From Eledone cirrhosa (taxonomy: Eukaryota), in contig OZ024741.1 of the NCBI GenBank assembly GCA_964016885.1, forward strand, positions 353,586,001-353,650,000: a stretch of 64,000 nt of DNA. The letters are read 5' to 3'. Position numbers and translations under genes: made by a program. Shown piece by piece: positions 13,311 to 59,336 of the stretch (the first letter of the stretch is position 1; the number at the start of each line of letters is the position of its first letter). Below the pieces are notes generated by a model that saw only the letters and a program-made list of their open reading frames with translations, was not told the origin of the DNA and searched no databases.

Positions 13311-13344
<34 letters not shown>

Positions 13345-13350
13345 GTATAT

Positions 13351-13419
<69 letters not shown>

Positions 13420-13620: not shown

Positions 13621-13651
<31 letters not shown>

Positions 13652-13653
13652 CA

Positions 13654-13704
<51 letters not shown>

Positions 13705-13721
13705 GTGTGTATATATATATG

Positions 13722-13814
<93 letters not shown>

Positions 13815-13826
13815 ATATATATATAC

Positions 13827-13857
<31 letters not shown>
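12755..13857. repeat. ~1.1-kb complex (TA)n/(TATG)n/(TACA)n microsatellite
   Basis: Read directly. Confidence 0.98.
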
Positions 13858-14029
13858 CTCAATATGCAATATGCAGTGGAAGGCACCTAGGTGGCTGGGT
13901 TTATGCAGAGGTTAGGTGCACAGAACTGGAAATATTCATTAGTTAAGCAAAACAAGACAACAAATTTCACAAGGAAGACATTTTTAAAAGATTGTCAACA
14001 TAGTCTTAGTTTAATGTAAGGAATGTAGA

Positions 14030-14030
<1 letters not shown>
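13854..14030. repeat. Outer left arm of an interrupted foldback element
   Basis: Reverse complement of 59011-59188 (e.g. ggaaatattcattagttaag / cttaactaatgaatatttcc; tttaatgtaaggaatgtagaga / tctctacattccttacattaaa). Confidence 0.92.

Positions 14031-14078
<48 letters not shown>
14031..14078. repeat. (AAT)16 at the T3 3' end
   Basis: Read directly. Confidence 0.97.
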
Positions 14079-14079
<1 letters not shown>

Positions 14080-14321
14080 TTTTCTTTATTAACCACAAGG
14101 GTTCACATAAAGTAGACATTAAGGACAGTACAGGACAATACAGGACGGTACAAATGGGCATTTCTGCGTGTAAAAAAACAGAGGTTGAAATAAAATAACA
14201 AAGAAAAATTCCCCAATAGGGGGGAGACTTCCAAGGGACATTTGTGGAGAAAGCCCATTAAAAGACCACAGTGGCCCTGACCACCAGGGCAAGTGCCCTC
14301 TCCCAGTTTTCCACCTTTAAT

Positions 14322-17300
14322 TTACAGACACATACTCAGAGAAGGCCCATTCATTCGGGCCATACTTGCTTCTCTCACCCATCTTTCAACAAAATGCTGG
14401 GAAGAGAGCACTTCCCTCTCTACCCTGATTTTCCTTTTCAAATGAAATTTGAAAAAGTTAATCAGGGCATCACCGAAGAGGTAAGTGCTCGTCTTCAGCC
14501 CTTTCAAACGTGTCCACCATACTATCTCTTTCGCCATGGCCACCAGACAGATAAAAACTGCCTGCCCTTCCAGGCTAAAGGAAGGGGGCGGGGCAATCCT
14601 CACGATGGACTCAGCTGATAGCTGGATCCATCCTACACGTGACAGCAGGTGTTCGACATAAACCCACAAGTCAGCAATGCTCGGACACTGGACGAGTGCG
14701 TGCAGGACGGTTTCGTCGCCCTGCGCGCATCTCGGACATGCCCGGCTGACGGCACCTCCATGCCTGTAAAGTTTATCCCGAACTGGCAAAGCTCCTCGGT
14801 AGCACTGCCAGGCCAGGGATTTCTGGAAGTTGTCCATACGCCCCGGCCCGAAAGTCCTTCCGAAGAGATTGGCTAGTTGATTTTCGTCGACGCCTAGAGT
14901 TTCTCCAAGTACGTCGTCGCTCTTCCCCTCCACTAATCCCCTATAGAACGCCAAGGTGGAGTTTCCACCGATCACATTGCCCGATTGGTCGAGGGCTGTG
15001 AGCGCCTGAAGACATTCCAGTCTCCAAGCGCTCCCTCTCGGTCTTCGCTTGACCCAGGACTGCAGCTCCGTCAAGGAGACGAGCTGGGGAAAAACGTGTC
15101 TTGCAAACGGCGACCACACCTGATCACCGTCGAGGAAGAGGTGGAGATGTCGTAGCCTGAGCGCGTGTCTGCGCATTATCAGCCACGGCATGCCCAGCCC
15201 TCCACGTAGCGGGTGTTGACAGCAGATGGACCGCCTGACCATCGGAGCGCGTCCCTTCCACAAGAAGCGAAAGAGCAAACGCTCCAGCGCAGTCAGGCGG
15301 GGCTTAGGACAAGGTACGACGGTCAGGCGGTAGTAGATGACGGATGCGATGTACGCATTCGCCACCTCCGCTCCACCTTTCAGGGATAGCTTCCTCTCGG
15401 CCCATTTCTGGGTGAGAGAAGACACCCTGCTCGTCACCTCGTCCCAGTTTTTGTCCGTCTGGAGGTCTGGACCGAACCAGACCCCTAGCAATTTAACCGG
15501 TCCGTCCGTCCAGCGCCCGGCGACGCTGTTGGACGGCATGGACCTGCCTCTCCAGGTGCCGAGCTGCAGGCCCACTGACTTTTCCTGGTTGATCATTGCT
15601 CCTGTCACCGCTTCGTATTCTCTTAGTGTAGTGCCGATCGCCTCGATGTGTCTGGCGTTCGACACCACTACGGTGACATCGTCGGCATACGCTGACACGG
15701 ATCTTCCGCATCCTAGTTCGCGCGGGACCCCCCCTCAACGTCTCCAGTTTGTGCAGTAATGGCTCGAGAGTCAATACGTACAATAGGGACGAGAGGGGAC
15801 ATCCTTGGCGGACCGAGCGCATGATGTTGAACGGTTCCGAAAGGTGACCGTTCACTCTCACTACAGAGCAGATGTCGCTGTGCATGGCAGCGATCCAGCC
15901 TCTGAAGACGGGCCCAAAGCCAGCCGCCCTCAGGACTGCCGTTAGGTAACGATGGTCGACCCTGTCGAAGGCTTTCGACTGATCTAAATTGATCAAAGAC
16001 CCACCCGTGCCAGGTTCCCTAGCTACCCTCTCTACGATGTATCGCATGAGGTGGAGGTTGTCGTGGATGGATCTGTCGGGAATGGCACATGTCTGTGCCT
16101 CTCCCACCAGACCACCAACGACAAGCGCCAACCTCTTTGCTAGCACCTTGGCCAAAATCTTGAACTCTGTGTTTAGCAGAGTTATGGGCCTAAAATTATC
16201 TATGTTATCCCCCTTGTTCGGATCCTTTCTCAGCAGCGCCACCGCTCCTCGGCTCACAGAGCTGGGAATTCTCCCGTTCTGTTGCCAGTTGCAGTAGACG
16301 TCCGCCAAGAGGCCTCCGAACAAGTTTGGCATTTGTACGTAAAGTTCATAGGGCAGACCATCCAAACCAGGCGATTTACCCCTTGTGCAACTAGTCATTG
16401 CATCCCGTACTTCAGCGGTTGTTATCGGCTTTTCGCAACACTCCGCCTCAGTGGCCGAAAGCCGCGGCAGTCCGTCGAGGTAGACACTAAAGTCCATTCC
16501 TCGATGCGGCCCGCCACTGCCCCCGAACAGTTGAGCGAAGTGTCGCTGAAAAGCTTCACACATTTTCCCGGGATCGAGTAGCATGTGCCCGTCGTGGTCC
16601 ACCAAAGACCGGATCGTGGCTTTGTTGCCACGACGCGCCTCCGCCACTCGGGCCCATTGAACGGCTTTCGTCCCCTCGTGTCTGAGAGCACGCACCCTAG
16701 CTCTGACAACGCAGCCTTCGTGCTTTGCATTGAAGAATTGGTCAAGGGCCAATTTCGCCGCAAGTACGTCGGTCGCGATGCCTTTGCTAAGCGCCTCATC
16801 TAATTTTCTAACTAATTCTCCCTCTGCTCTATTTTTCTCTATTGCTAAAGTCTTACTAAACCTAATGGACTCTATTCTAATTGCTCTTTTCAGAGCAAAC
16901 CACCACTTGTTGTTGACGATGGCCCCCGTCAACGCCCGCTTAACTAGTTCGCTAATCCGGTTTCTGTAGGCCTTGCGCGCTGGTAAGGACGCGTTTAACT
17001 TCCAGTAGCCGGGTCCTCGTCTATGAAGCCTATCTAAGTCAAGCACACAGATCACGAATTTGTGGTCCGTGTAGCTGACTATCTTGAATTGTGGACAGCC
17101 TATGCTAGACCTATCTATTTCCCTACAAAATACTCTATCTAGATATGATCTGGATGACCCTATGCGATTTGTCCAAGTCCACATTGGTACATTCGGGAAA
17201 TCCATTCGGTACCTGTCAGACAGTTCAAAACGTCTGAGCAGGTTGGTGAGACTCTTGCACCCTCCTTCCCTATCCACTAATCCCACACAATCCCAGCGTG

Positions 17301-17742
17301 CATCTAAGATCCCGTTCCAGTCGCCCACTAACACTAAAGAGCGGGACGTTCCAAGAAAGGTCTCCAGACGCCGGAAGAAATCAGGCCGCCCTGCTCCTGT
17401 CGGGGCATAGACGGCCACTAACCTGAAAGCTTGCCCGTCTCCGCTGGTCACGTCCAGCACCACCAACTTACCTTCTGGGTCCAGGAAGATGGCCCGTATG
17501 GCAAGATCCAAACCTCTCCGAAAAAGCACAGCAACTCCTCCCCCCGATCCCGGACGGCTGGGAGATGCGTACACATCGTAGCCGCCGAAGATCGGTGCGA
17601 AAGCCTGTGCTTCGGAGATTCTGGTCTCGCTGATGGCCACTACATCTATGTTTAGTGACCTGAGGTCGTTGAGCAGGTGGCCCTGCTTCCATGACGACCC
17701 CAAGCCACGCGCATTTATGCTGCCTATTCTGAGTGAGGTCAT
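14322..17742 (-). pseudogene. T3 ORF2 (APE + RT + zinc finger); single frameshift near the C7 run at 15728-15734
   Basis: MTSLRIGSINARG, GDWN, TDH, KAFD and QGCPLS in the 749-aa part; YADD and CPRC in the 458-aa part. Confidence 0.93.
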
Positions 17743-19790
17743 GTTGAAAAGTAGTGGAAAAGATGGGAAAGACCACTGACTTTACTTCTCGTAGGGGAAG
17801 GACGGCTTTTCCATCCTTTTCACTGCTTGTGGCCTCCTCAGGAAGGATGTCCTTATAAATCCTCCTGGAGAGTGCTTGTCGGAAGTCTCCGATGTCTTTG
17901 GGGAATTTTTGTTTTAGTGTCATGTACGTTTTCTGTGTGATGCGAGTGATTTGTATGTGTGGAGGTGGTGTGAATTTTGGGGTTGTTGTGTAGTCTTTTT
18001 CTGTGATGCTGGTGTTGTGTTGGATATAGTGTAATAATTGCTTGTTGTTCAAATTTAATGCTGTGTAGTGTGTATCGTTTTGGTTGTTTTGTTTTGTTTG
18101 CGTTTGTTGTGGGTTTGTTTCTGTTTCGCATTTTGGTGACTTTTGTGGTGTAGGTGATGGTGGTGCTGGGGATAATGATGGTGATGGTGTTGGTGTTTGG
18201 GTTGATGGGGTTGGTGATGCTGGTGTGGATGGTGGCATATCTGTCCTAACTTTTTTGTTTCTTAGTTTATTTGTTTCCCTCTGTATTTTGTTTTTGGAGG
18301 GGGAAGGAAGAGAATTTTTTCTTTTTTGGTTTCTTTTTTTTTTTCCGGATATCGTTTCCCACTCCTCGTCGTCACAATCTGTCTCCAGTTGTGATAGGCC
18401 GGGGAGTGGAAAATCCTCCACAGTCGTTAGTTTTGGTTGTGGTGTGGTGGATGGTGTAGGCGCTGGTGCTAGTTCTGAAGCGTTGGGTGGTGGTGGTGTT
18501 GGTTTTGCTGGTGGTGGTAGTGGTGTTGGTTTTGCTACTGTTGCTGGGGTTGTTGCTGTTATAGTTGCTTCTGTTGTTGCTGCTACAGTTGTTGCTGCCA
18601 TCTCTGCTACTGGTGGTGTTGATGGTTGTGTCACTGGGGTGGGTAGGAGAGGTGGCCTCAACCTTTTAGCCTGAGGGCAGAAAGCCCTTAGGTGGGTTCC
18701 TTCACCACAAACGACACACCTAGGTCTTCTGCCCTCGACAATTACCGTGAGGTGGCTGCCGTCAGTGAGGTCTATTACCTCTGGGATCTCCTCAATGCTT
18801 TTTTGGTCCGCTTGGATCAGGAGCTCCATCCCAGATCCGGACCAGTTTTCCTGCTTTTCTTTTGCTACTGCTATTATTTTCGTGTTGGCTTCGATGCCGG
18901 CGAGGACAGCCGCTATTAGCCAGGGAATTTCGATGGCCGGTGGAACGTGGGTCACCCTGATCTTTACGAGTCTCTGGCCACAATAGCTTGGGACGAGTGT
19001 GAAGTCGTCACTTTTTAATGGGGCCATGGAGTGTTCTCTAGCCTCCTCTGGTGTTTCAAAGAACACATCCACGGTTCCATACTTTTGCCCACGTCTGATG
19101 TGGTTTTTTCTTGCCCACACATGTCCCAAAGCTTTTTGGATTTGGGACTCGGATGCCCGTTCCACTCGGCGCGATTTTACATTTATTGTTCTATACAACA
19201 CGGTGCATAGGCGCCGATGCTCCATTTTATTAGGTGGGGGGGGGGCTGACCCTGTACCCATCTTTCTTTACCATTTGTTTGGCATTTTCTAAATCCTCTT
19301 GAGTTACCGTGAACGCTTCGAATTGTTTTGCTACGATGGCGAAACTGAGGGTCGGTTTTATAATGTCATTGTTGTTGTTGTTGCTATCGTTATTTGTGTT
19401 AATCTTAATTTTAGTTTCAGTTGTGGTGGTGGTGACGTCAGTCGTCTTTGGTGGGGAAGAGTCCATTTTGCTTGATTTCATTTCGACATCACGAGTTAAT
19501 TTATTTTTTTCTTCTTTTGTTTCTGTTGTCGCGGTGGTGGTGGGGGTGGTGGTGGGGGTGGTGGTTGTCGCGGTGGTGGTGGTGGTGGTGGTGGTGGAGG
19601 CTTTAACACCTGCAGTCATTGGTAATGGCGGGAAATGAATGTCTGCCTGAGACAAATTTAAAATATTGCTACTGCTTATATTTTTTTTTGTGTTGGCAAA
19701 CGTAGTAACATTTACAATGGTGGTGTCGGTGTGAGGTGTTATTTTGTGAGGAAGGCTTTCAGCTGCTTCGTGCAGAGGGGAATTAGCCAT
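17468..19790 (-). pseudogene. T3 ORF1 (CCHC knuckle, Pro/Thr-rich); frameshift at the G-run 19235-19245
   Basis: ORFs 19230-19790 and 17468-19261; CVVCGEGTHLRAFC; similar to T2 ORF1. Confidence 0.85.
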
Positions 19791-19998
19791 TTTTTTTCAA
19801 AGAAATGTTTGGATAATAATAAAAGTTAAAATTTTGGGCACAAGGCCCCAATCTTTTTGGGTGTCCTTTTCGGAAAACAATGTATGTGTGCTTATAAACA
19901 GTTAACAATAAAATTTTCCATAAATGACAATTTTTAACAAACGGAAATAACAAACCTTTGCGGAGCTCACGATGATACGATATACTACGTAGGTCGCC

Positions 19999-20066
<68 letters not shown>
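19999..20066. repeat. (TAA)n between the T3 5' end and Dong-like A1
   Basis: Read directly. Confidence 0.97.
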
Positions 20067-22113
20067 GGTGCCAGAGTGGTTGACAAAAGGTACCACAGTT
20101 CTGATAATGAAAGACCGAATCAAGGGTAATGATGTTACCAACTATAGACCTATCACATGTCTGTCCGTAATGTGGAAACTGTTGACGAGCATTGTGTCTG
20201 AGGAAATCTACCAAATCTACAAAGGACCAGTTACTTATTGATAAGATGGTAATGGGGAATTGCAGGAGGAGACACACTGATCTTGCCATGGGATGGATAG
20301 ACTACAGAAAGGCATTTGACATGGTGCCTCATTCTTGGATCACCAAAAGCCTGGAGATCTTCAGGGTGGCAGATAACATCAGACAGTTGCTGGGCAGGAG
20401 TATGGGATCCTGGGAGACAGAGTTGACATCAACTGGAGTATCCTTGGGAAGCGTGAAGATCAAGAGAGGTATCTTCCAGGGAGATAGCCTGTCCCCTCTG
20501 TTGTTTGTCCTTGCCCTGATGCCCTTGACCATTATGCTGCGAAAAGTGAGAGTAGGATACAAGTTGGGAAAGGGAGAGCTTACCATCAATCACCTTCTCT
20601 TCATGGACGATTTTAAGCTCTTCGGGAAAAGTGAGAAGGAGTTGGATGTGCTTGTTGACACTGTCCGTATTTTCAGCAGTGATATATGTATGCAGTTTGG
20701 TATTAGTAAATGTGGAGTCATTGTGATGAGGAGGGGTAGGTTGAGCAGAAGTAACGGGATCCAGATACCAACAGGTGAGATGATAAAGGAAATTGACTCT
20801 GGGGAAGGATACAAGTATTTGGGCGTTCTGGAGGCTGATGGCATAAAGAACAAAAAAATGAAGGAATTGTTAAGAACTGAATACATTCGGAGAGTAAGGA
20901 GCGTATTGAAGTCACATCTGAACAGCAGAAATGCCATAAGCGCAGTAAATTCCCGAGCTGTGTCTATTATTAGGTACGGTGCGGGAATTCTGAGATGGAA
21001 TGTTGCTGAACAAAAAGAAATGGATAGGAAGACTAGGAAGCTATTGACTATCTACAACATGTCCCACAAGAGGAGTGATGTCGATAGACTCTACCTAAGG
21101 AGATCTGAGGGTGGAAGAGGTCTTATCAGCATAGAGGACTGTGTTCAGATGGAGAAAAACAACCTATACAAATACGTGACCTATAGTAAGGAGCCAATCC
21201 TCAGAACTGTACTGAAGGAGGGGACAGTAGGCCAGGGGATGTCCAAGGAGGAAATAACATCAAGGAGGAAGAGCAGCCTTAAGGGCAAATCCCTTCATAG
21301 TACCTTCTTTGAGAAAACTGAATTTAGAGATCCACAGACATGGAACTGGTTGAGAAGAGGAGACCTCAAAAAGGCTACAGAAGGAATGCTAATGGCTGCG
21401 CAGGAGCAGGCCCTCAAAACGAAGTGGTTGAAGCACCATATTTACAAGGAGGAGGCTAGCCCACTGTGCAGGATCTGTGGAGAGAGAGAGGAGACTGTGG
21501 CTCACATTGTGTCCGAGTGTAAACACCTAGCTCAGACCCACTATAAGGGCTGGAGACACGATGTGATGGGCAGGGTGATCCACTGGCACCTGTGCAAAGT
21601 AAACAATTTACCACATTCTGAGAAATGGTATGAGCATAGGCCAGAGGCGGTGATGGAGAACAATCAGGTGAAGGTGCTGTGGGATTTTAGGATACAGACG
21701 TACAAAAAACTGGAACACAATAGACCTGACCTGGTGGTTGTGGACAAAGAAAAAAGATCGTGTCTGATTGTGGATGTGGCCTGCCCTTTCGACACGAGAG
21801 TGCAAGAGAAGGAGAGGGAGAAAATTAACCGATACCAGGACCTAAAGTGGGAGGTGAAAAGGATTTGGAACTGCCATGAAGTCAAAGTGATCCCGATTGT
21901 CATAGGCGCACTGGGGACTATCTCCAAAAGTTTCCAGGGATGGTTAAAGAAAATCGGCCCCTTCACGCTTTTTGGAACGCTTCAAAAGGCATGCTTGCTT
22001 GGAACAGCAAGAACCCTCCGATACGTCCTGAATATCTGAGGCTGCAGGTAGTGGCATGATATTCATTCCAACGGACTTTCCAGTTAACCAACATCAATGA
22101 CTGAGATTCAAGG
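20067..22113 (+). mobile_element. 5'-truncated R4/Dong-type retrotransposon, family A (A1)
   Basis: Starts in NYRPITCL region; ORF 20192-22039; short 3' UTR followed by (AAT)n. Confidence 0.93.
20192..22039 (+). pseudogene. Truncated RT + CCHC + restriction-like endonuclease ORF
   Basis: DYRKAFD, QGDSLSP, FMDD, YKYLG, CRIC..ETVAHIVSEC, RHD, RPD..DV..K..Y. Confidence 0.92.
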
Positions 22114-22122
22114 AATAACAAC

Positions 22123-22201
<79 letters not shown>
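22114..22201. repeat. (AAT)n tail/target
   Basis: Read directly. Confidence 0.97.
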
Positions 22202-22203
<2 letters not shown>

Positions 22204-22469
22204 GTAGGAGGTGAAAAGGATTTGGAACTGCCATGAAGTCAAAGTGATCCCGATTGTCATAGGCGCACTGGGGACTATCTCCAAAGGTTTCCAGGGATGC
22301 TTAAAGAAAATCGGCCCCTTCACGCTTTTTGGAACGCTTCAAAAGGCATGCTTGCTTGGAACAGCAAGAACCCTCCGATACGTCCTGAATATCTGAGGCT
22401 GCAGGTAGTGGCTTGATATTAAATCCAACGGACTTTCCAGTTAACCAACATCAATGACTGAGATTCAAG

Positions 22470-22470
<1 letters not shown>
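22202..22470 (+). mobile_element. Very short 5'-truncated family A copy (A2), followed by (AAT)n 22471-22514
   Basis: Near-identical to 21844-22113. Confidence 0.93.
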
Positions 22471-22512
<42 letters not shown>

Positions 22513-22518
<6 letters not shown>

Positions 22519-25499
22519 CTAAACATTACTGATTTAAATCATCTCTATTATGCATCGGCTAAAGTCACCACTCACTTATGTGGAGTGAAGATGAAAAAAC
22601 AAAGGAATTCCCACAAGAAATCTACTTGGCAAGAGAACATCAATCGCCAAATAAACCTTCTCCGATCTGACATAGAAATTTTAACAAACTATAAAGTAGG
22701 TGAACATGTTAAACAAACTAAACTTAGAAAATTGAAAAGAAAGTACAGTATAAAATCAACAAGTGACATAGACATGCTGATAGAAATAATCAAGCAAAAA
22801 GTGTCGGCCAAAGCTGCTCGTATAAGGCGCTTTGAAAAACGATTAGGATTCTATAAGGACAATAATATGTTCAAAAACAACCAAAGAAACTTCTACAGAA
22901 AAATTGGTAAATCAACAATAACTGCTAAATCAATACCACCCAAGGAGGAAGTGCAAGAATTCTGGGAAAAGATCTGGCCGAAGAAAAAGTTCATAACATA
23001 CATGCCCCATGGATAGACAGCCAAATGAAAGATACAGTTCACCTTGAGGAACAAACATGGGAAAATATAACAGTTGAACAGTTGCGCTTGGCTCTAAGAA
23101 AAACCAGCAAATGGAAATCCCCAGGAAAAGACAAAATACAAAATTTTTGGATAAATGCCTTCACAGAGTCTCATGAGCTGTTAGCCCAACTTTACAATGA
23201 AATAGTTAAGGAGCCAGAAAAGATACCTTCATGGCTAGTTAACGGCATTACATTCCTGCTTCCGAAGAATGATGAGACAAACAATCCCCAAAATTACAGA
23301 CCGATAACTTGCTTGACCACAATGTATAACATTTTAACATCAGTCCTAACTGAATACACATATGACCACCTGATAACAAATGACCCATTTCCCATTGAGC
23401 AGAAAGGGTGTAAACGAGGCTCATATGGCTGTAAGGATCAGCTTCTGGTTAACAAAATGATACTGGAAGATTGTCATAATAGACACAAAAATCTATCGAT
23501 TGCTTGGATAGATTATAAAAAAGCATTCGATACTTTGCCACACAGTTGGATTGAAAAATGTTTAGAGATTTTCAAAATATCCCCCGTTGTCAGGAGGTTT
23601 TTGTCATTCAGTATGAAGACATGGAAAACGACACTCCTTTTGAATAGTGAAACAAAATCACTGGAAGCTGGAGAAGTTAATATTAATTGTGGAATTTTTC
23701 AGGGTGACTCTTTATCACCGCTTTTATTCTGCATCGCACTTATACCATTAAGTAAAATGCTCAATAAAACAAAACATGGATATAAAGTCTATGACAAAAC
23801 CATTAATCACCTGTTCTACATGGATGACCTGAAACTATTTGCAAAAAAATGATGAACAATTGCAAGGGCTATTATCCACTGTGAAGCAGTTCAGTGATGA
23901 CATTAAAATGGTGTTTGGACTAGATAAATGCGCCAAAGCAACGTTCACCAGAGGAAAGCTGCTGAAGCGTTCAGACATTAATCTTGATCGGGGGAACGTG
24001 ATAAGAGAACTTGATCAAGAAAAAACTTACAAATATCTAGGTGTTTGTGAAGGAGACGGAATCAAGCACTCTACAATGAGGGAAAGGATAAGGAAGGAAT
24101 GTTACCGCAGAGTAAGAGCAATCTTAAGAACGGAATTGAATGCAAGGAATAGGATCGATGCCATAAACACGCTTGCCATACCAGTAGTAACCTACAGTTA
24201 CAATGTCATCAACTGGTCAAGCACAGAGATCCGTAGGCTCGATACAAAAATTCGAAAATTCTTAACCATGCACAGAATGTATCACCCTAAGGCAGATATA
24301 GATAGAATATATCTCCCTAGGAAAGAAGGAGGACGTGGGTTAATCCAGTTAGACATTGCGTTGAAAACTGCAACAATTGGATTATCTACATATCTAAGGG
24401 AATCACATGATTGGATGATCAAACTCGTTTTGAAACACGAAAGCATCAAAAGATCATATTCCATTACAAAAGATGCACAAAGATACAGTAATGGACTACA
24501 AATTTCAGAAGTCCCATTTACTGCTGAAATGGAAAACACAGAAAAAGCAAAGCAGGTAAAAGTAACTGCAAAGAAAGAACTGCTACAGAAAATGGCTAAG
24601 AAATGGCAAGAAAAGCCTCTGTATGGAAAATACCAAGAGCGATCTAACAATCCTGATGTTGACAAAACTTTAACCCATCAGTGGTTGGCATCCTCTGGAC
24701 TGAAATCAGAGACTGAAGGACTGATTATACCGGCACAAGATCAGTGTCTGCCAACAAAAAATTACCAAGCCAACATAATAAAAAATGGGTGCAGCCCATT
24801 ATGCCGTGTATGCAAAAAACAACCAGAGACCATTGACCATATAATTTCAATGTGCAGTCCTATAGCTCCAACCGAATACCTAAACAGGCATGACAGAGCT
24901 GCACAATACATACATTGGATAATGTGTAAGCATTTTGACCTGCCCCATCAAAAGAATTGGTGGGAGCATCAACCACCTCCCATACTTGAAAAAGATCACA
25001 TCTCAATCTTGTGGAACTTTAGCATCCAAACAGACCGAAAAATAGATGCAAACAGACCTGATATAATATTGAAAGACTTTCAAAAGAGGGTATGCCTGCT
25101 AATTGATATGTCTGTTCCAATAGACAAGAATGTATCTATAAAAACATTTGAAAAATTGAGCTGGAGATAGAAATTGGAAAAATATGGAAATTGAGAACTA
25201 AAACAATACCAGTGGTTGTAGGCGCTCTGGGAATGATACCTAAGGGGTCTAATGATTACTTATCGCAAATCCCAGGAAACCCGCGTATAGGAGAAATACA
25301 AAAGATAGTACTAATGGGAACTGCCCATATACTAAGGAAGATTCTGTCAATATAAGTACATCACAAGTCTAAACACTAAAGATGCATGTGTGAATATGTA
25401 TGTTCTTTCTTGAACATGGCGGACCTTGGTGTCTCTTGAGGTCACTGGTTGTGACTTGGTGATAACTCGTATGAACATAAAGCAAGATAAATGTAACTG
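22513..25499 (+). mobile_element. Dong-like B1, 5'-truncated, frameshifted
   Basis: ORF pieces 22585-23016, 23025-23852 (YMDD) and 23839-25170 (CRVC, RHD, RPD); ancestral stop at 25353-25355. Confidence 0.93.
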
Positions 25500-26503
25500 T
25501 AATAATAATAATAATAATAATAAGGGAAGAAGACGCACGTGGTGGATAGAAGGTCATGAAATCGCTCCCGTAAGTTTTTGATTTTTAACATATCTAAATC
25601 AATTGTGAAATAACAATTCTTAGTACAAATGATACATAAAGCACCAGACTCAAGTCTCAGAAAATTCGGATCCATAATATCCTGTTATATCGCTCAAATA
25701 TTTAATTTTGTATTATACATTTTATAGTCAAAAAAGAAAATGGTTATAAATGGAAGAAAACCCCCTCTGTCTACACTATATAGAACAGCCAATAACAGCA
25801 ATTTCACCAACACCACAAACTAGATATACCACCTATCCCATCACCCCTCTGTGTACACTAAATACAACAGCCAGATAACGGCAATTTCACCACCACCACC
25901 AATCCCAGCATAATAATAATAATTACTATTATTATTGTCTCAAGTTTTCACAAAATGTTTAATTCCAATATTAAGTGAATATGTCAACACATATATTAAA
26001 CATACGCGACAAACGCATAGATACACAGATCAAACAAAACTACAGTCTATTCAACAAAACTCAGTAACGACAACGCCATCACTATAGTCACCGACGCCAC
26101 CACTCCATACATCATTGCTACCACTATCCCATCACCGCCGCCACCACTCCTTCATTGCTACCACCACTATTCCCCCATTACCTTCTGTTAACTTAAGAAA
26201 GGGGAAGGTGGCGGTATCACTAGACAAGGGAGAGGCTAGCAAAAGATATAAATAGATTGACTTAGTGACCCGGCCACCGGCCAAACGTCAACGAAAATGG
26301 CACTGCTGGCTCCCCCCTTCCCCACCAACAATAGGAAAAGCCCCAGCACCACCACCGACATAGCCAACAACAATAACAGGCAACTTCAGCAAAAAGTATA
26401 TTATATTATTAATAATTTCATTCTTAAGCCACGCAATGCTCACATTAAGGAACCACTCATGATAATAACAATTTAAAAAAAACAACAAAAAAGAAAACCC
26501 CGT

Positions 26504-26700
26504 GACCAAGAAATACCGGGATGGCGGCCTACGGGGAATAGCCGTGTCTCTAGGGGAGGACGACCCCTCTAGTCTTGGTTGACACTCGTCCTAGAAGTGG
26601 TAACACGAAATGATTACCCCTTGGCGGATAAGGATAAAACGCGACAAAATAAAGTAAATGTCTAATGATAAAATCTCATACCGGATCGGCCGTCACCCGG
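26504..26700 (+). ncRNA. Structured 5' leader, candidate HDV-like ribozyme fold (repeated in every unit)
   Basis: Pairings GACCAA/TTGGTT, AGGAC/GTCCT and GAC/GTC in nested-pseudoknot order; catalytic strand non-canonical. Confidence 0.35.
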
Positions 26701-29700
26701 GTAAAAAAGGGCCGCGTCCCTCAGAGAGGAACCAGACTGGGGTCGAAAAATCAGCTAATGGTTCAAACCTTCCCATCACTTCGGAGCTGGAGACCTCCCA
26801 TAACCGGAATACTCCTACTGTTGGCCCTCCATGCTCACCACCAAGAAATCAAAAGAAAAAGAGAGAAAAATGGTCAAGGGAAGATAATAAAGAAGTCCTT
26901 GAGGCTTTCTACACTGCCATGTACTACCCATCAAATACATCGAATACAGAACAGACATATATCAACTGGAAAAAGAAACATCCCGAAAACAGAGGCTATA
27001 TTGACAGTAACAAACTAGCCAATATACGAAGAAATATTGTAACTGATATAGACATTGATCAGATCAAGCTATTAGCACAAAGTCAGCGAAGGGAAAATGA
27101 AACATGTGTCAGTGGAAATGAGGTAAATTGTAACACTTCGAATCCCAGGGTTGGGGCGGAATCACTGACAACAGAATAAATTAAAGAAAGGATCGAAAAA
27201 GTGGAGGGAGTGCATGCTCAAGATGAAACTCAAAATGGAAACAATGAGATCGTAAATGATAAAGAAATGAATGAGAATGAACTTGCCAACTTGAAGGATG
27301 AAATTATGATCGAATGGATGAAAATGAAAGAATCTGACATGGGGGAACGAGACACCCTCCCTAAGATCCAGAACTCCAAACAGAACCACAAGACTAACAT
27401 AATTCTCAAAAACATTATCATCACAAACAAACTAAACATTACTGATTTAAATCATCTCTATTATGCATCAGCTAAAGTCACCACTCACTTATGTGGAGTG
27501 AAGATGAAAAAACAAAGGAATTCCCACAAGAAATCTACTTGGCAAGAGAACATCAATCGCCAAATAAACCTTCTCCGATCTGACATAGAAATTTTAACAA
27601 ACTATAAAGTAGGTGAACATGTTAAACAAACTAAACTTAGAAAATTGAAAAGAAAGTACAGTATAAAATCAACAAGTGACATAGACATGCTGATAGAAAT
27701 AATCAAGCAAAAAGTGTCGGCCAAAGCTGCTCGGATAAGGCGCTTTGAAAAACGATTAGGATTCTATAAGGACAATAATATGTTCAAAAACAACCAAAGA
27801 AACTTCTACAGAAAAATTGGTAAATCAACAAACTGCTAAATCAATACCACCCAAGGAGGAAGTGCAAGAATTCTGGGAAAAGATCTGGGCCGAAGAAAAA
27901 GTTCATAATATACATGCCCCATGGATAGACAGACAAATGAAAGATACAGCTCACCTTGAGGAACAAATATGGGAAAGTATAACAGTTGAACAGTTGCGTT
28001 TGGCTCTAAGAAAAACCAGCAAATGGAAATCCCCAGGAAAAGACAAAATACAAAATTTTTGGATAAATGCCTTTACAGAGTCTCATGAGCTGTTAGCCCA
28101 ACTTTACAATGAAATAGTTAAGGAGCCAGAAAAGATACCTTCATGGCTAGTTAACGGCATTACATTCCTGCTTCCGAAGAATGATGAGACAAACAATCCC
28201 CAAAATTACAGACCGATAACTTGCTTGACCACAATGTATAACATTTTAACATCAGTCCTAACTGAATACACATATGACCACCTGATAACAAATGATCCAT
28301 TTCCCATTGAGCAGAAAGGGTGTAAACGAGGCTCATATGGCTGTAAGGATCAGCTTCTGGTTAACAAAATGATACTGGAAGATTGTCATAATAGACACAA
28401 AAATCTATCGATTGCTTGGATAGATTATAAAAAAGCATTCGATACTTTGCCACACAGTTGGATTGAAAAATGTTTAGAGATTTTCAAAATATCCCCCGTT
28501 GTCAGGAGGTTTTTGTCATTCAGTATGAAGACATGGAAAACGACACTCCTTTTGAATAGTGAAACAAAATCACTGGAAGCTGGAGAAGTTAATATTAATT
28601 GTGGAATTTTTCAGGGTGACTCTTTATCACCGCTTTTATTCTGCATCGCACTTATACCATTAAGTAAAATGCTCAATAAAACAAAACATGGATATAAAGT
28701 CTATGACAAAACCATTAATCACCTGTTCTACATGGATGACCTGAAACTATTTGCAAAAAAATGATGAACAATTGCAAGGGCTATTATCCACTGTGAAGCA
28801 GTTCAGTGATGACATTAAAATGGAGTTTGGACTAGATAAATGCGCCAAAGCAACGTTCACCAGAGGAAAGCTGCTGAAGAGTTCAGACATTAATCTTGAT
28901 CGGGGGAACGTGATAAGAGAACTTGATCAAGAAAAAACTTACAAATATCTAGGTGTTTGTGAAGGAGACGGAATCAAGCACTCTACAATGAGGGAAAGGA
29001 TAAGGAAGGAATGTTACCGCAGAGTAAGAGCAATCTTAAGAACGGAATTGAATGCAAGGAATAGGATCGATGCCATAAACACGCTTGCCATACCAGTAGT
29101 AACCTACAGTTACAATGTCATCAACTGGTCAAGCACAGAGATCCGTAGGCTCGATACAAAAATTCGAAAATTCTTAACCATGCACAGAATGCATCACCCT
29201 AAGGCAGATATAGATAGAATATATCTCCCTAGGAAAGAAGGAGGACGTGGGTTAATCCAGTTAGACATTGCGTTGAAAACTGCAACAATTGGATTATCTA
29301 CATATCTAAGGGAATCACATGATTGGATGATCAAACTCGTTTTGAAACACGAAAGCATCAAAAGATCATATTCCATTACAAAAGATGCACAAAGATACAG
29401 TAATGGACTACAAATTTCAGAAGTCCCATTTACTGCTGAAATGGAAAACACAGAAAAAGCAAAGCAGGTAAAAGTAACTGCAAAGAAAGAACTGCTACAG
29501 AAAATGGCTAAGAAATGGCAAGAAAAGCCTCTGTATGGAAAATACCAAGAGCGATCTAACAATCCTGATGTTGACAAAACTTTAACCCATCAGTGGTTGG
29601 CATCCTCTGGACTGAAATTAGAGACTGAAGGACTGATTATACCGGCACAAGATCAGTGTCTGCCAACAAAAAATTACCAAGCCAACATAATAAAAAATGG

Positions 29701-30267
29701 GTGCAGCCCATTATGCCGTGTATGCAAAAAACAACCAGAGACCATTGACCATATAATTTCAATGTGCAGTCCTATAGCTCCAACCGAATACCTAAACAGG
29801 CATGACAGAGCTGCACAATACATACATTGGATAATGTGTAAGCATTTTGACCTGCCCCATCAAAAGAATTGGTGGGAGCATCAACCACCTCCCATACTTG
29901 AAAAAGATCACATCTCAATCTTGTGGAACTTTAGCATCCAAACAGACCGAAAAATAGATGCAAACAGACCTGATATAATATTGAAAGACTTTCAAAAGAG
30001 GGTATGCCTGCTAATTGATATGTCTGTTCCAATAGACAAGAATGTATCTATAAAAACATTTGAAAAATTGAGCTGGAGATAGAAATTGGAAAAATATGGA
30101 AATTGAGAACTAAAACAATACCAGTGGTTGTAGGCGCTCTGGGAATGATACCTAAGGGGTCTAATGATTACTTATCGCAAATCCCAGGAAACCCGCGTAT
30201 AGGAGAAATACAAAAGATAGTACTAATGGGAACTGCCCATATACTAAGGAAGATTCTGTCAATATAA
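26658..30267 (+). pseudogene. Dong-like B2 ORF (unit 25524-30411): RT-CCHC-RLE with one stop and three frameshifts
   Basis: ORFs 26658-27179, 27201-27839, 27817-28764, 28751-30082. Confidence 0.93.
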
Positions 30268-31568
30268 GTACATCACAAGTCTAAACACTAAAGATGCATG
30301 TGTGAATATGTATGTTCTTTCTTGAACATGGCGGACCTTGGTGTCTCTTGAGGTCACTGGTTGTGACTTGGTGATAACTCGTATGAACATAAAGCAAGAT
30401 AAATGTAACTGTAATAATAATAATAATAATAATAAGGGAAGAAGACGCACGTGGTGGATAGAAGGTCATGAAATCGCTCCCGTAAGTTTTTGATTTTTAA
30501 CATATTTAAATCAATTGTGAAATAACAATTCTTAGTACAAATGATACATAAAGCACCAGACTCAAGTCTCAGAAAATTCGGATCCATAATATCCTGTTAT
30601 ATCGCTCAAATATTTAATTTTGTATTATACATTTTATAGTCAAAAAAGAAAATGGTTATAAATGGAAGAAAACCCCCTCTGTCTACACTATATAGAACAG
30701 CCAATAACAGCAATTTCACCAACACCACAAACTAGATATACCACCTATCCCATCACCCCTCTGTGTACACTAAATACAACAGCCAGATAACGGCAATTTC
30801 ACCACCACCACCAATCCCAGCATAATAATAATAATTACTATTATTATTGTCTCAAGTTTTCACAAAATGTTTAATTCCAATATTAAGTGAATATGTCAAC
30901 ACATATATTAAACATACGCGACAAACGCATAGATACACAGATCAAACAAAACTACAGTCTATTCAACAAAACTCAGTAACGACAACGCCATCACTATAGT
31001 CACCGACGCCACCACTCCATACATCATTGCTACCACTATCCCATCACCGCCGCCACCACTCCTTCATTGCTACCACCACTATTCCCCATTACCTTCTGTT
31101 AACTTAAGAAAGGGGAAGGTGGCGGTATCACTAGACAAGGGAGAGGCTAGCAAAAGATATAAATAGATTGACTTAGTGACCCGGCCACCGGCCAAACGTC
31201 AACGAAAATGGCACTGCTGGCTCCCCCCTTCCCCACCAACAATAGGAAAAGCCCCAGCACCACCACCGACATAGCCAACAACAATAACAGGCAACTTCAG
31301 CAAAAAGTATATTATATTATTAATAATTTCATTCTTAAGCCACGCAATGCTCACATTAAGGAACCACTCATGATAATAACAATTTAAAAAAAACAACAAA
31401 AAAGAAAACCCCGTGACCAAGAAATACCGGGATGGCGGCCTACGGGGAATAGCCGTGTCTCTAGGGGAGGACGACCCCTCTAGTCTTGGTTGACACTCGT
31501 CCTAGAAGTGGTAACACGAAATGATTACCCCTTGGCGGATAAGGATAAAACGCGACAAAATAAAGTAA

Positions 31569-49300: not shown

Positions 49301-49911
49301 TGTCTGCCAACAAAAAATTACCAAGCCAACATAATAAAAAATGGGTGCAGCCCATTATGCCGTGTATGCAAAAAACAACCAGAGACCATTGACCATATAA
49401 TTTCAATGTGCAGTCCTATAGCTCCAACCGAATACCTAAACAGGCATGACAGAGCTGCACAATACATACATTGGATAATGTGTAAGCATTTTGACCTGCC
49501 CCATCAAAAGAATTGGTGGGAGCATCAACCACCTCCCATACTTGAAAAAGATCACATCTCAATCTTGTGGAACTTTAGCATCCAAACAGACCGAAAAATA
49601 GATGCAAACAGACCTGATATAATATTGAAAGACTTTCAAAAGAGGGTATGCCTGCTAATTGATATGTCTGTTCCAATAGACAAGAATGTATCTATAAAAA
49701 CATTTGAAAAATTGAGCTGGAGATAGAAATTGGAAAAATATGGAAATTGAGAACTAAAACAATACCAGTGGTTGTAGGCGCTCTGGGAATGATACCTAAG
49801 GGGTCTAATGATTACTTATCGCAAATCCCAGGAAACCCGCGTATAGGAGAAATACAAAAGATAGTACTAATGGGAACTGCCCATATACTAAGGAAGATTC
49901 TGTCAATATAA
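46302..49911 (+). pseudogene. Dong-like B6 ORF, same lesions
   Basis: ORFs starting 46302, 46845, 47389, 48395. Confidence 0.93.
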
Positions 49912-54200: not shown

Positions 54201-54826
54201 CCGGCACAAGATCAGTGTCTGCCAACAAAAAATTACCAAGCCAACATAATAAAAAATGGGTGCAGCCCATTATGCCGTGTATGCAAAAAACAACCAGAGA
54301 CCATTGACCATATAATTTCAATGTGCAGTCCTATAGCTCCAACCGAATACCTAAACAGGCATGACAGAGCTGCACAATACATACATTGGATAATGTGTAA
54401 GCATTTTGACCTGCCCCATCAAAAGAATTGGTGGGAGCATCAACCACCTCCCATACTTGAAAAAGATCACATCTCAATCTTGTGGAACTTTAGCATCCAA
54501 ACAGACCGAAAAATAGATGCAAACAGACCTGATATAATATTGAAAGACTTTCAAAAGAGGGTATGCCTGCTAATTGATATGTCTGTTCCAATAGACAAGA
54601 ATGTATCTATAAAAACATTTGAAAAATTGAGCTGGAGATAGAAATTGGAAAAATATGGAAATTGAGAACTAAAACAATACCAGTGGTTGTAGGCGCTCTG
54701 GGAATGATACCTAAGGGGTCTAATGATTACTTATCGCAAATCCCAGGAAACCCGCGTATAGGAGAAATACAAAAGATAGTACTAATGGGAACTGCCCATA
54801 TACTAAGGAAGATTCTGTCAATATAA
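51217..54826 (+). pseudogene. Dong-like B7 ORF, same lesions
   Basis: ORFs starting 51217, 51760, 52304, 53310. Confidence 0.93.
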
Positions 54827-54997
54827 GTACATCACAAGTCTAAACACTAAAGATGCATGTGTGAATATGTATGTTCTTTCTTGAACATGGCGGACCTTGG
54901 TGTCTCTTGAGGTCACTGGTTGTGACTTGGTGATAACTCGTATGAACATAAAGCAAGATAAATGTAACTGTAATAATAATAATAATAATAATAATAA

Positions 54998-57900
54998 GGG
55001 AAGAAGACGCACGTGGTGGATAGAAGGTCATGAAATCGCTCCCGTAAGTTTTTGATTTTTAACATATTTAAATCAATTGTGAAATAACAATTCTTAGTAC
55101 AAATGATACATAAAGCACCAGACTCAAGTCTCAGAAAATTCGGATCCATAATATCCTGTTATATCGCTCAAATATTTAATTTTGTATTATACATTTTATA
55201 GTCAAAAAAGAAAATGGTTATAAATGGAAGAAAACCCCCTCTGTCTACACTATATAGAACAGCCAATAACAGCAATTTCACCAACACCACAAACTAGATA
55301 TACCACCTATCCCATCACCCCTCTGTGTACACTAAATACAACAGCCAGATAACGGCAATTTCACCACCACCACCAATCCCAGCATAATAATAATAATTAC
55401 TATTATTATTGTCTCAAGTTTTCACAAAATGTTTAATTCCAATATTAAGTGAATATGTCAACACATATATTAAACATACGCGACAAACGCATAGATACAC
55501 AGATCAAACAAAACTACAGTCTATTCAACAAAACTCAGTAACGACAACGCCATCACTATAGTCACCGACGCCACCACTCCATACATCATTGCTACCACCA
55601 CTCCTTCATTGCTACCACCACTATTCCCCCATTACCTTCTGTTAACTTAAGAAAGGGGAAGGTGGCGGTATCACTAGACAAGGGAGAGGCTAGCAAAAGA
55701 TATAAATAGATTGACTTAGTGACCCGGCCACCGGCCAAACGTCAACGAAAATGGCACTGCTGGCTCCCCCCTTCCCCACCAACAATAGGAAAAGCCCCAG
55801 CACCACCACCGACATAGCCAACAACAATAACAGGCAACTTCAGCAAAAAGTATATTATATTATTAATAATTTCATTCTTAAGCCACGCAATGCTCACATT
55901 AAGGAACCACTCATGATAATAACAATTTAAAAAAAACAACAAAAAAGAAAACCCCGTGACCAAGAAATACCGGGATGGCGGCCTACGGGGAATAGCCGTG
56001 TCTCTAGGGGAGGACGACCCCTCTAGTCTTGGTTGACACTCGTCCTAGAAGTGGTAACACGAAATGATTACCCCTTGGCGGATAAGGATAAAACGCGACA
56101 AAATAAAGTAAATGTCTAATGATAAAATCTCATACCGGATCGGCCGTCACCCGGGTAAAAAAGGGCCGCGTCCCTCAGAGAGGAACCAGACTGGGGTCGA
56201 AAAATCAGCTAATGGTTCAAACCTTCCCATCACTTCGGAGCTGGAGACCTCCCATAACCGGAATACTCCTACTGTTGGCCCTCCATGCTCACCACCAAGA
56301 AATCAAAAGAAAAAGAGAGAAAAATGGTCAAGGGAAGATAATAAAGAAGTCCTTGAGGCTTTCTACACTGCCATGTACTACCCATCAAATACATCGAATA
56401 CAGAACAGACATATATCAACTGGAAAAAGAAACATCCCGAAAACAGAGGCTATATTGACAGTAACAAACTAGCCAATATACGAAGAAATATTGTAACTGA
56501 TATAGACATTGATCAGATCAAGCTATTAGCACAAAGTCAGCGAAGGGAAAATGAAACATGTGTCAGTGGAAATGAGGTAAATTGTAACACTTCGAATCCC
56601 AGGGTTGGGGCGGAATCACTGACAACAGAATAAATTAAAGAAAGGATCGAAAAAGTGGAGGGAGTGCATGCTCAAGATGAAACTCAAAATGGAAACAATG
56701 AGATCGTAAATGATAAAGAAATGAATGAGAATGAACTTGCCAACTTGAAGGATGAAATTATGATCGAATGGATGAAAATGAAAGAATCTGACATGGGGGA
56801 ACGAGACACCCTCCCTAAGATCCAGAACTCCAAACAGAACCACAAGACTAACATAATTCTCAAAAACATTATCATCACAAACAAACTAAACATTACTGAT
56901 TTAAATCATCTCTATTATGCATCAGCTAAAGTCACCACTCACTTATGTGGAGTGAAGATGAAAAAACAAAGGAATTCCCACAAGAAATCTACTTGGCAAG
57001 AGAACATCAATCGCCAAATAAACCTTCTCCGATCTGACATAGAAATTTTAACAAACTATAAAGTAGGTGAACATGTTAAACAAACTAAACTTAGAAAATT
57101 GAAAAGAAAGTACAGTATAAAATCAACAAGTGACATAGACATGCTGATAGAAATAATCAAGCAAAAAGTGTCGGCCAAAGCTGCTCGGATAAGGCGCTTT
57201 GAAAAACGATCTAGATTCTATAAGGACAATAATATGTTCAAAAACAACCAAAGAAACTTCTACAGAAAAATTGGTAAATCAACAAACTGCTAAATCAATA
57301 CCACCCAAGGAGGAAGTGCAAGAATTCTGGGAAAAGATCTGGGCCGAAGAAAAAGTTCATAATATACATGCCCTATGGATAGACAGACAAATGAAAGATA
57401 CAGCTCACCTTGAGGAACAAATATGGGAAAGTATAACAGTTGAACAGTTGCGTTTGGCTCTAAGAAAAACCAGCAAATGGAAATCCCCAGGAAAAGACAA
57501 AATACAAAATTTTTGGATAAATGCCTTCACAGAGTCTCATGAGCTGTTGGCCCAACTTTACAATGAAATAGTTAAGGAGCCAGAAAAGATACCATCATGG
57601 CTAGTTAACGGCATTACATTCCTGCTTCCGAAGAATGATGAGACAAACAATCGCCAAAATTACAGACCGATTTCTGTAATTGATATGTCCGTTCCAATAG
57701 ACAAGAATGTATCTATAAAAACATTTGAAAAATTGAGCAAGTATGAGGACCTGGAGATAGAAATTGGAAAAATGTGGAAATTGAGAACTAAAACAATACC
57801 AGTGGTTGTAGGCGCTCTAGGAATGATACCGAAGGGGTCTGATGATTACTTATCGCAAATCCCAGGAAACCCGCGTATAGGAGAAATACAAAAGATAGTA

Positions 57901-58089
57901 CTAATGGGAACTGCCCATATACTAAGGAAGATTATGTCAATATAAGTACATCACAAGTCTAAACACCTAAAGATGCATGTGTGAGTATGTATGTTCTTTC
58001 TTGAACATGGCGGACCTTGGTGTCTCTTGAGGTCACTGGTTGTGACTTGGTGATAACTCGTACGAACATAAAGCAAGATAAATGCAGCT

Positions 58090-58090
<1 letters not shown>
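54998..58090 (+). mobile_element. Dong-like B8: complete 5' part, ~1.8-kb internal deletion removing the RT core, intact C-terminus
   Basis: NYRPI is fused to SVIDMSVP at 57671-57677; KLSKYEDLEIE is retained; stop at 57945. Confidence 0.93.

Positions 58091-58154
<64 letters not shown>
58091..58154. repeat. (TAA)n
   Basis: Read directly. Confidence 0.97.
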
Positions 58155-58332
58155 TGTTTCTACTTTAAGCACAAGGCCAGCAATTACCCAGTGCATTACT
58201 GGTACTTTATTTTATCGACGCCGTAAGGATGAAAGGCAAAGTCAACCTCGGCGGGATTTGAACACAGATCGTAAAGGGACGTAACTATGCTGGAAAGCAT
58301 GGCGTCCGGCCCTCTACCGATACTGCCAATCC
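58155..58332 (-). mobile_element. tRNA-derived SINE inserted in (TAA)n
   Basis: Minus strand: TGGCAGTATCGG A box, GTTCAAATCC B box; homologous to 10659-10842; (AAT)n on both sides. Confidence 0.9.
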
Positions 58333-58370
58333 AATAATAATAATAATAATATAATATTAATAATATAATA

Positions 58371-59188
58371 TTAATAATGTTTCGCTATTCCATATAATGT
58401 TTCTGGATCAAATGATTATAGATCATTATTGATCTGGTTCAGTTGAAGATATTTAACTTAGGTACAATTAGAGCAGCTCATCGGAACTTCAAAAGGAATA
58501 TAAATTAAAATAAAGAATGTTACATGAATGTAATGTTCCATATATTGGTATTTCACTATGGTGTCCTAGATATATCTTTTGTCTGCCATAGTCGAACTGT
58601 ATTCTTCTGTCGAGGCTGCATTGTGTGAGATCTGCCTATGGGTAACAAGATGACCGCCAATGGACATATTTAGCTTACTAATTAGAGGGTGGTTTCAGGG
58701 GAAGTAACTCCTCGAGAAATTAGAAATTTGTGCTAAATTTTTTAATTGAGGGAGGTAACTTATAATTATCTAAGTTAGCTATAACTATTTAACTTATTTG
58801 ATATAAGTAAAAAGAGGAATTATAACATTCTTTCTTTATTTTAATTTATATTCCTTTTGAAGTTGCGATGAGCTGCTCTAGTTATACCTAAGTTAATTAT
58901 CTTCAACTGAATCAGATCAATAATGATGTATAATCATTTGATCCAGAAACATTATATGGAGTAGCGAAACAATTGTAAACGGACATTATTAATATTATTA
59001 TTATTATTATTCTCTACATTCCTTACATTAAACTAAAACTATGTTGACAATCTTTTAATAATGTCTTCCTTGTGAAATTTGTGGTCTTTTTTTTCTTAAC
59101 TAATGAATATTTCCAGCTCTATGCACCTGACCTCTGCATGAACCCAGCCACCTAGCTGCCTGCCACTGCATGTTGAACATTGAGCACA
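58371..59188. repeat. Inner left arm, loop and complete right arm of the foldback element
   Basis: 58379-58523 is the reverse complement of 58822-58971; 59011-59188 is the reverse complement of 13854-14030. Confidence 0.9.
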
Positions 59189-59272
59189 TGCCTTTACGCC
59201 TTGGCTTCTAACTAATTCACCAATCTCTCTTCTCCTATCCTATCTCCATCTCTCTCTTTAAGATTGGTTACT

Positions 59273-59336
<64 letters not shown>

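Follow-up and report, generated by a model that had tools for sequence, protein, structure and literature searches.

We analysed a stretch of 64,000 nucleotides from Eledone cirrhosa (here called the window; C2:353586001-353650000 of the 3.0 Gb genome assembly that was searched), in which two inverted arms enclose a large block of retroelements. The inverted matches were obtained from a self-comparison of the window with simple repeats masked, plus direct alignment. The outer segment at 13854-14031 matches 59011-59188 in reverse complement (178 bp, 92.1% identity, E 2e-71), and the inner segment at 58379-58517 matches 58832-58970 in the same way (139 bp, 95.0%, E 1e-59). Only 40 bp (58971-59010) separate the two segments in the right arm, and this interval holds an interrupted (TTA)n tract at 58985-59010. 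At the equivalent position in the left arm, the segments are 44,347 bp apart, and the space is taken up by a long interspersed element (LINE) of family T (T3), two copies of LINE family A (A1 and A2), a block of LINE family B and a short interspersed element (SINE), separated by (TAA)n tracts of 47, 68, 89, 44, 24-27, 64 and 44 nt (Table 1). We read the locus as a pile of (TAA)n-targeting retroelements in one arm of an inverted Penelope-like insertion, of which two thirds is a tandem array, probably the product of unequal crossing-over, and we give this reading a probability of roughly 85%. The arms themselves are the 3' ends, or pseudo-long terminal repeats (pseudo-LTRs), of the Penelope-like element.

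Table 1. Coordinates of the Penelope-like insertion, the inserted elements and the tracts between them in the window.
Position	Strand	Feature	Remarks
12753-13853	.	Imperfect (TA)n/(TG)n tract flanking the Penelope-like left end	
13854-14031	-	Left pseudo-LTR, outer part; terminal ~86 bp missing	92.1% to 59011-59188; rare variants in common with right arm
14032-14078	+	(TAA)n tract 1, 47 nt	
14079-19998	-	T3, full-length L1/Tx1-like LINE, frameshifted; 3' end at left, (ATT)n tail	Pfam; PDB
19999-20066	+	(TAA)n tract 2, 68 nt	
20067-22113	+	A1, 5'-truncated restriction-like-endonuclease LINE (Dong/R4-like)	63-bp internal gap relative to another copy
22114-22202	+	(TAA)n tract 3, 89 nt	
22203-22470	+	A2, 268-bp 3' fragment of family A	97.8% to A1
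22471-22514	+	(TAA)n tract 4, 44 nt	
22515-25499	+	B1, 5'-truncated copy of B, the second restriction-like-endonuclease LINE family; putative left parent of the array	
25500-57671	+	Array; (TAA)8-9, 973-bp 5' head and B body per unit	Six extra units
54998-58090	+	B2, complete 5' head, ~1.8-kb internal deletion; putative right parent of the array	
58091-58154	+	(TAA)n tract between B2 and SINE, 64 nt	
58155-58334	-	tRNA-type SINE with A-box- and B-box-like motifs; 3' end like that of T3	
58335-58378	+	(TAA)n tract with duplicated 14-mer; adjacent 14 bp of native site lost	
58379-58813	-	Left pseudo-LTR, inner part, and 3' untranslated region (UTR); stops just before the GIY-YIG stop codon of full copies	
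58823-59274	+	Right, shorter 5'-truncated Penelope-like 3' end	Empty site 58985-59010; hammerhead-like motif ~58862-58980
59275-59333	.	(TA)n tract flanking the right end	

The insert lies in a single arm

The original prediction had described this region as a ~1-kb foldback whose right arm records the empty site. The alignments bear out the inverted matches on which it was based, with inner limits (58523 and 58822) that were a few bases too wide. It had also been reasoned that the idea would fall if the outer segment were a common dispersed repeat not normally linked to the inner one. The outer segment is indeed dispersed, with 2168 first-look candidates in the genome, 40 of which were scored, but in the other copies a site of 37-49 nt normally connects it to the inner segment. 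The right arm has this empty state.

The left arm lacks the outer ~86 bp that are present in the right arm, and this terminus was not found in the 33.8 kb upstream (13.8 kb of the window and 20 kb beyond it). Beside the SINE, a further 14 bp of the native site are missing. The missing terminus would agree with an origin of the left outer segment from a different copy, joined to the block via a deletion between two piles, as would its overall identity to the right arm, which does not pair the two arms (92.1%, not above that to 46 other arms, mean 92.2%). However, the left outer segment and the right arm have a 1-nt insertion in common that is present in none of the 46 other arms, a T that is present in two of them and four further minority alleles, and we consider the different-copy origin extremely unlikely. 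The inner segments of the two arms also have alleles in common that are otherwise found in 2 of 73 and 3 of 73 arms. As judged from the rare alleles common to the left outer segment and the right arm, the 44-kb insert is located within a single arm of a single Penelope-like insertion, which without it is about 1.1 kb long and consists of two 5'-truncated 3' ends with no coding sequence.

Identity of the host: a Penelope-like element carrying motifs of the Hydra clade

The arms are an inverted pair of 3' ends from a (TA)n-inserting Penelope-like retroelement that carries motifs of the Hydra clade. The window copy is without an open reading frame (ORF), and its assignment is based on 85-96% DNA identity of the arms and the UTR. 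In at least nine distinct other copies, the inner ends of the arms run into a GIY-YIG ORF (86-90% DNA identity). A protein search of the genome gave 26,312 first-look candidates, of which 150 were scored. One copy (L179) contains a continuous frame of 727 amino acids from reverse transcriptase (RT) to GIY-YIG with the YRDD and YIG motifs; the Pfam match to GIY-YIG is weak (E 0.038). The RWK and DKT motifs are present in L163 and DKT in L180, and the CxCx5C linker was found as CNCRYPNAC among L163, L180 and L179. The pattern CDxC..E..N..CQH, with CxxC and CxH flanking the E and N residues, is present in L143, L147-L149 and L153. The Penelope-like copies are inserted into (TA)n, and both direct and inverted pseudo-LTR layouts occur among 60 loci selected by RT. 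The two ends are usually unequal, one stopping 164 bp short of the other, and in most copies the long arm ends in ...GAACTG followed by (TA)n.

A Tc1/mariner miniature inverted-repeat transposable element (MITE) or a Sola-type host was first read from these ...GAACTG/TA ends and was dropped, as longer copies continue into RT and GIY-YIG. If the host were a DNA transposon with long inverted repeats in (TA)n, either a Tc1/mariner-type MITE or a Foldback element, this would account for the resemblance of the ends to a CAG terminus with a TA target, and for short copies that are palindromes without coding sequence. However, equal terminal inverted repeats around a transposase were not found; instead, the arms reach an RT-GIY-YIG frame, which excludes a Tc1/mariner MITE, they also occur in direct orientation around this ORF, and the inequality of the two ends argues against it as well. 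We therefore assign almost no probability to a DNA transposon and retain the Penelope-like assignment. The foldback was thus correctly seen as far as the inverted arms are concerned, but they are Penelope-like ends and represent a fifth retroelement family.

A hammerhead-like motif was recognised in 60 of 73 arms, while 13 were unmatched. It consists of a CCGAUGA core (present in 58 of the 60 matched arms), a helix II of 5-7 bp with a long insert, GAAAC, a palindromic loop and a GUA site, and it ends 7 nt before the (ATT)n. Rfam gave no hammerhead hit on four host loci. On these loci and on positions 13800-31000 of the window, it gave low-scoring microRNA-like and similar matches below the gathering score, mostly at simple repeats.

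In two single inverted copies (L012 and L020), both arms have private changes in common inside the TAA site, as expected if one RNA was copied into both arms or if the arms were later homogenised. One further inverted insertion is present both on the short contig C382 and on C22 (L010 and L011), which probably represents an uncollapsed haplotype.

The inserted elements

ORF1 of T3 contains a CCHC knuckle, and ORF2 contains an apurinic/apyrimidinic (AP) endonuclease, an RT and a zf-RVT domain according to Pfam. The best PDB hit of T3 is LINE-1 ORF2 (E 1e-39). The T3 5' end has 1439 first-look candidates in the genome, and the single named homolog is a hypothetical protein from Argonauta hians (58%). 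An Atlas search with ORF1 returned leads under 0.8 only, and a DNA search with the junction returned T3 3' ends only.

Families A and B encode an RT followed by a CCHC motif and a PD..D endonuclease motif in one frame, and are 36-50% identical in amino acid sequence. The best PDB hits for family A, for which this was tested, are R2 proteins, and none of the 120 homologs listed in a search for these families bore an informative name. No 5' hepatitis delta virus-like ribozyme was found for these LINEs by Rfam in 13800-31000. The junction of the internal deletion in B2 (57671/57677) is without TAA.

The last ~22 nt of the SINE are similar to those of T3, and the two have polarity and target in common. 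The SINE, which carries A-box- and B-box-like motifs, is a likely partner of family T and may be mobilised by it. The inserts in the window are about 97-99.6% identical to the nearest copies compared.

Families A and B have a 700-bp 5' head in common (25524-26227, and L158-L160) with 96.5% DNA identity and no DNA match further downstream, and in other B copies the head is only 74-84% alike. Such a head identity, despite the 36-50% identity of the proteins, suggests a recent 5'-end swap between the families. In four copies (L063, L065, L067 and L078), a long (GAA)n rather than (TAA)n lies directly 5' of the A/B head, which begins GGGAAGAAG, possibly as a result of template slippage at second-strand priming.

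The host site and (TAA)n targeting in the genome

To describe the site in other copies, we made a census of the 60 RT-selected loci, in which 90 arms reach it. Of these sites, 55 are empty, 27 contain one SINE, 3 contain two SINEs and 5 are without the outer segment, one of which is a LINE pile. Uninterrupted copies, which the original prediction had proposed to look for, are thus found elsewhere, and roughly one arm in three (31/90) has its host (TAA)n occupied. The density of SINEs at the site is ~300-fold that of the rest of the element, a rough estimate from 8 SINEs in ~187 kb. The median TAA-like length is 29 nt at the 55 empty sites, 43 nt at the 27 sites with one SINE and 72 nt at the three sites with two. 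The ATTAAT interruption of the site lies on both sides of the insert in 14 of the 30 SINE-filled sites, as expected of target duplication. Both results uphold the claim that insertions regenerate their target, and the junctions vary between filled sites, which indicates that most insertion events were independent.

Three LINE-filled copies of the same site, of 4.8-16.3 kb, were found elsewhere. One is a pile of 16.3 kb at C2:228.39 Mb (A, full A, full B, full T) that closes on the outer segment. A query with a long-TAA arm gave 156 exact matches, and among the first 30, which were examined, two contain A-family LINEs (4.8 and 4.9 kb), three contain SINEs, 22 have no insert and three are rearranged.

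In the best-scoring copies outside the window, we counted how often LINE ends are bordered by a TAA-type tract, with CAA and GAA units also accepted. This is so for T 5' ends in 23 of 24 cases, for A/B 5' heads in 18 of 18, for A 3' ends in 28 of 29 and for B 3' ends in 23 of 23, or for 92 of 94 LINE ends in sum. Another member of the T/A/B/SINE set adjoins 78 of the 94 ends, in 74 of these with the polarity of the window, where T and SINE are antisense and A and B sense to the TAA strand. Of the T 3' ends, for which TAA was part of the query, 20 of 30 also adjoin a member of the set. These counts agree with the claim that four families target (TAA)n, and show that young copies of these families normally lie in piles. 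The self-perpetuating landing pad of the original prediction was therefore right in kind and holds genome-wide, but it is not special to this locus, which represents an extreme outcome of a process widespread in this genome and not a new kind of element.

The B array

The array has a period of 4911-4915 bp (4895 bp in one unit) and comprises seven units plus 790 bp. The six extra units amount to 29,454 bp, or 66% of the insert, while six insertions account for 14,893 bp. Growth to ~44 kb by insertions alone, as originally proposed, is therefore not supported, since two thirds of the block are a tandem array at the DNA level. The 973-bp piece in each unit was considered as a separate element, and this was rejected because it is the 5' head of full-length B, also present in A.

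B1 and B2 are in direct orientation, 4.9 kb apart, and have 790 bp in common at ~98%. Over the 790 bp that all eight copies contain, the internal units agree with the last copy as far as 23087, including the private alleles of the last unit at 22557, 22821 and 23065. From 23183 they match the first copy, with its private allele at 23228 present and the private alleles of the last copy at 23183 and 23287 absent. The switch from last-copy to first-copy type thus takes place inside an interval of 95 bp, which argues for unequal crossing-over rather than fresh insertions. Tandem duplication via non-allelic homologous recombination between neighbouring repeats is well established. We conclude that two thirds of the block likely arose in this way between neighbouring B copies.

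The alternative that one retrotransposition after another built all 44 kb, with B inserting seven or eight separate times, would fit with the fact that every unit is a whole element bounded by (TAA)n and with B copies that adjoin B copies elsewhere in the genome. However, all units have a stop, frameshifts and identical junctions in common, as well as 26 alleles that are present in none of 5-31 other copies per site. Only 1-8 substitutions distinguish the internal units, compared with 94-98% identity among other B copies. Furthermore, a chimera of the two end copies sets the phase of the period, and about half of the other B copies, examined with 1.5 kb of flank, are 5'-truncated. Together with the allele switch between 23087 and 23183, which contradicts separate insertions, this makes their accumulation very improbable.

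The pile could also be real and the copy number of the array inflated by the assembler. The units are 99.8-99.98% alike over 34 kb, a length that exceeds that of typical accurate long reads, and no spanning read was seen. On the other hand, the differences between units are recurring and non-random: U2 resembles U5 and U6 resembles U7, one head has a 20-bp deletion, and some units have TAA8 where others have TAA9. The alleles demand at least one duplicated chimeric unit, and a similar duplication is present in another pile, at C4:181.87 Mb, in which a B-SINE-B cassette is duplicated at 99.6% between two T copies that are 98% alike. We regard inflation as unlikely, and unequal crossing-over as the better explanation of the array. 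Part of 57600-59700 is contained in 7 of 10 listed sequencing runs, four of which were examined, at a depth that is family-wide and not locus-specific. These four runs yielded one 89-nt contig identical to 58836-58924 and no B2 deletion joint among the joints listed.

Several observations weigh against our reading of the locus. The four sequencing runs contained no record that spans the array or an empty allele of the locus. At positions 22844-22846 the internal units are mosaic, in that U2 and U5 agree with the first unit there, and a single private allele of the last unit (23008) lies to the left of the inferred crossover, so that more than one exchange or conversion is needed. The 22 unfilled arms among the 30 long-TAA arms have tracts of up to 69 nt, which indicates that slippage alone lengthens the tract too. 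In L196, both pseudo-LTRs carry a SINE with the same rare variant; this SINE may have travelled inside the Penelope transcript, and some filled arms may be inherited. The copies used for the flank counts are the best-scoring (young) ones rather than a random draw, and the clade names of T, A and B are based on domain order and motifs rather than on a tree with named references.

Proposed history of the locus

The homology of the arms shows that a Penelope-like element first entered (TA)n as two opposed 5'-truncated 3' ends, each with a (ATT)n of ~29 nt. As the pattern of the inserts shows, an AP-endonuclease LINE and its likely SINE partner then inserted so that their (ATT)n tails lie on one strand, whereas the (TAA)n tails of two restriction-like-endonuclease LINEs lie on the other. 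Six such insertions gave ~14.9 kb in all, and their enzymology is inferred. Since target duplication and tail leave (TAA)n on both sides, each insertion adds target. Finally, as the alleles suggest, the 5'-truncated B1 and the internally deleted B2 would have recombined unequally between the equivalents of 23087 and 23183, and further unequal exchanges would have given the six extra units. The divergence values point to this order, with the host first (arms 5-8% apart), the inserts next and the array last.

More tentatively, and at somewhat less than even odds, the locus may reflect a target-propagation cycle that runs across three retroelement classes. In such a cycle, the Penelope-like element would spread thousands of (ATT)n seeds, located 7 nt past a putative ribozyme-like cleavage site. 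The unrelated AP-type and restriction-like endonucleases would converge on the triplet from opposite strands and build strand-polarised piles, in which families exchange 5' heads and are carried along by the Penelope element. These piles would mature into LINE-based macrosatellites through unequal crossing-over.

Neighbouring elements in the window

The surroundings of the host contain further repeats of similar kinds. An inverted pair at 12107-12757, together with 59810-60146, is a short (TA)n-flanked element with a CTGANGA...GAAA hammerhead-like core and likely represents the ends of another Penelope-like family. With these likely Penelope-like ends in (TA)n nearby, the host itself would sit in a (TA)n pile. 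On the minus strand, 60381-62306 belongs to a different Penelope-like family with an RT and GIY-YIG-like frame, 5'-truncated at a (TA)n tract; in another genome copy (L144), a piece of this family is fused to the 3' UTR of the host family. At 345-8200 there are two copies of an L1/Tx1-like family related to T3 (71% DNA identity over ORF2). They are flanked by (GATA)n and not by (TAA)n, and thus form a second microsatellite pile. The different flanks likely reflect a target switch between sister L1/Tx1-like families.

Implications and comparison with known systems

In the history proposed above, a 29-nt repeat would grow to tens of kilobases in two steps, by targeted insertion and then by unequal crossing-over. 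The other arm is a built-in empty-site control in thousands of copies, so that insertion rate, strand choice and array growth are measurable from one assembly. Two unrelated endonucleases on one triplet also offer a clean test of convergent target recognition. The locus holds two warnings: what is called a "foldback" element or MITE in genomes of this kind may be a Penelope end, and recent activity is overcounted where LINEs form tandem arrays.

Each of the ingredients has a precedent, while their combination was not found in the literature searched. No paper in that literature dealt with cephalopod (TAA)n piles shared between element families or with a Tx1 family that targets (AAT)n; Repbase entries, supplements and subscription papers were outside its scope and may hold such families. 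The portions of two further papers drawn on here contribute no target data (PMC9115989, PMC4758252).

The features given for the Hydra clade are a C-terminal GIY-YIG, RWK, DKT, CxCX5C, CxxC and CxH around E and N, and (TA)n insertion (Craig et al. 2021, PMC8557442). The host family has these motifs and the (TA)n insertion, as well as tandem and inverted pseudo-LTRs, and the same paper reports inverted 5'-truncated copies that make flanking inverted repeats. It differs from the clade in that the asymmetry of its ends is 164 bp, instead of the 30-40 bp tail at one end that is often present in Penelope-like elements (PMC8557442), and in that its pseudo-LTR holds a (ATT)n exploited by other elements. 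Hammerheads with palindromic loops have been reported from Penelope-like elements (PMC4209133), but the hammerhead-like motif of the host is non-canonical in its CCGAUGA core and long helix II insert.

Families A and B resemble the Dong elements of the R4 clade in their (TAA)n target and in their single frame with RT, CCHC and restriction-like endonuclease (PMC3812793, PMC3774820). The points of difference are that the two families have a 96%-identical 700-bp 5' head in common, their target is also used by an AP-endonuclease family on the opposite strand, and no 5' ribozyme was found by Rfam in 13800-31000.

Tx1-clade LINEs target microsatellites or sites in other transposons (Kojima 2015, PMC4494074), as in the cases of Tx1 in Tx1D, Kibi/Koshi, and Tx1-Mar with SINEU-3 in Mariner-N4_AMi, where SINEU-3 makes sequential tandem insertions. 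The AP-endonuclease LINE and the SINE of the window likewise have a common target inside a mobile element, and their sequential tandem insertions sandwich the target duplication. Here, however, the host is a retroelement and insertion is directed at (AAT)n throughout the genome, not at a single host family, and the microsatellites given in that account are (TC)n, (TTC)n, (TTCC)n and (TTTC)n, without (AAT)n.

Dong-R4, L1-Tx1 and Penelope families have also been recently active in Octopus vulgaris (PMC13282606), and the same three classes are thus active together in an octopod genome, although the main text of that paper mentions neither targets nor nesting. The array finally agrees with non-allelic homologous recombination in its chimeric unit and in a period that is fixed by the spacing of two direct repeats; it differs in that its direct repeats come from a polarised microsatellite pile.

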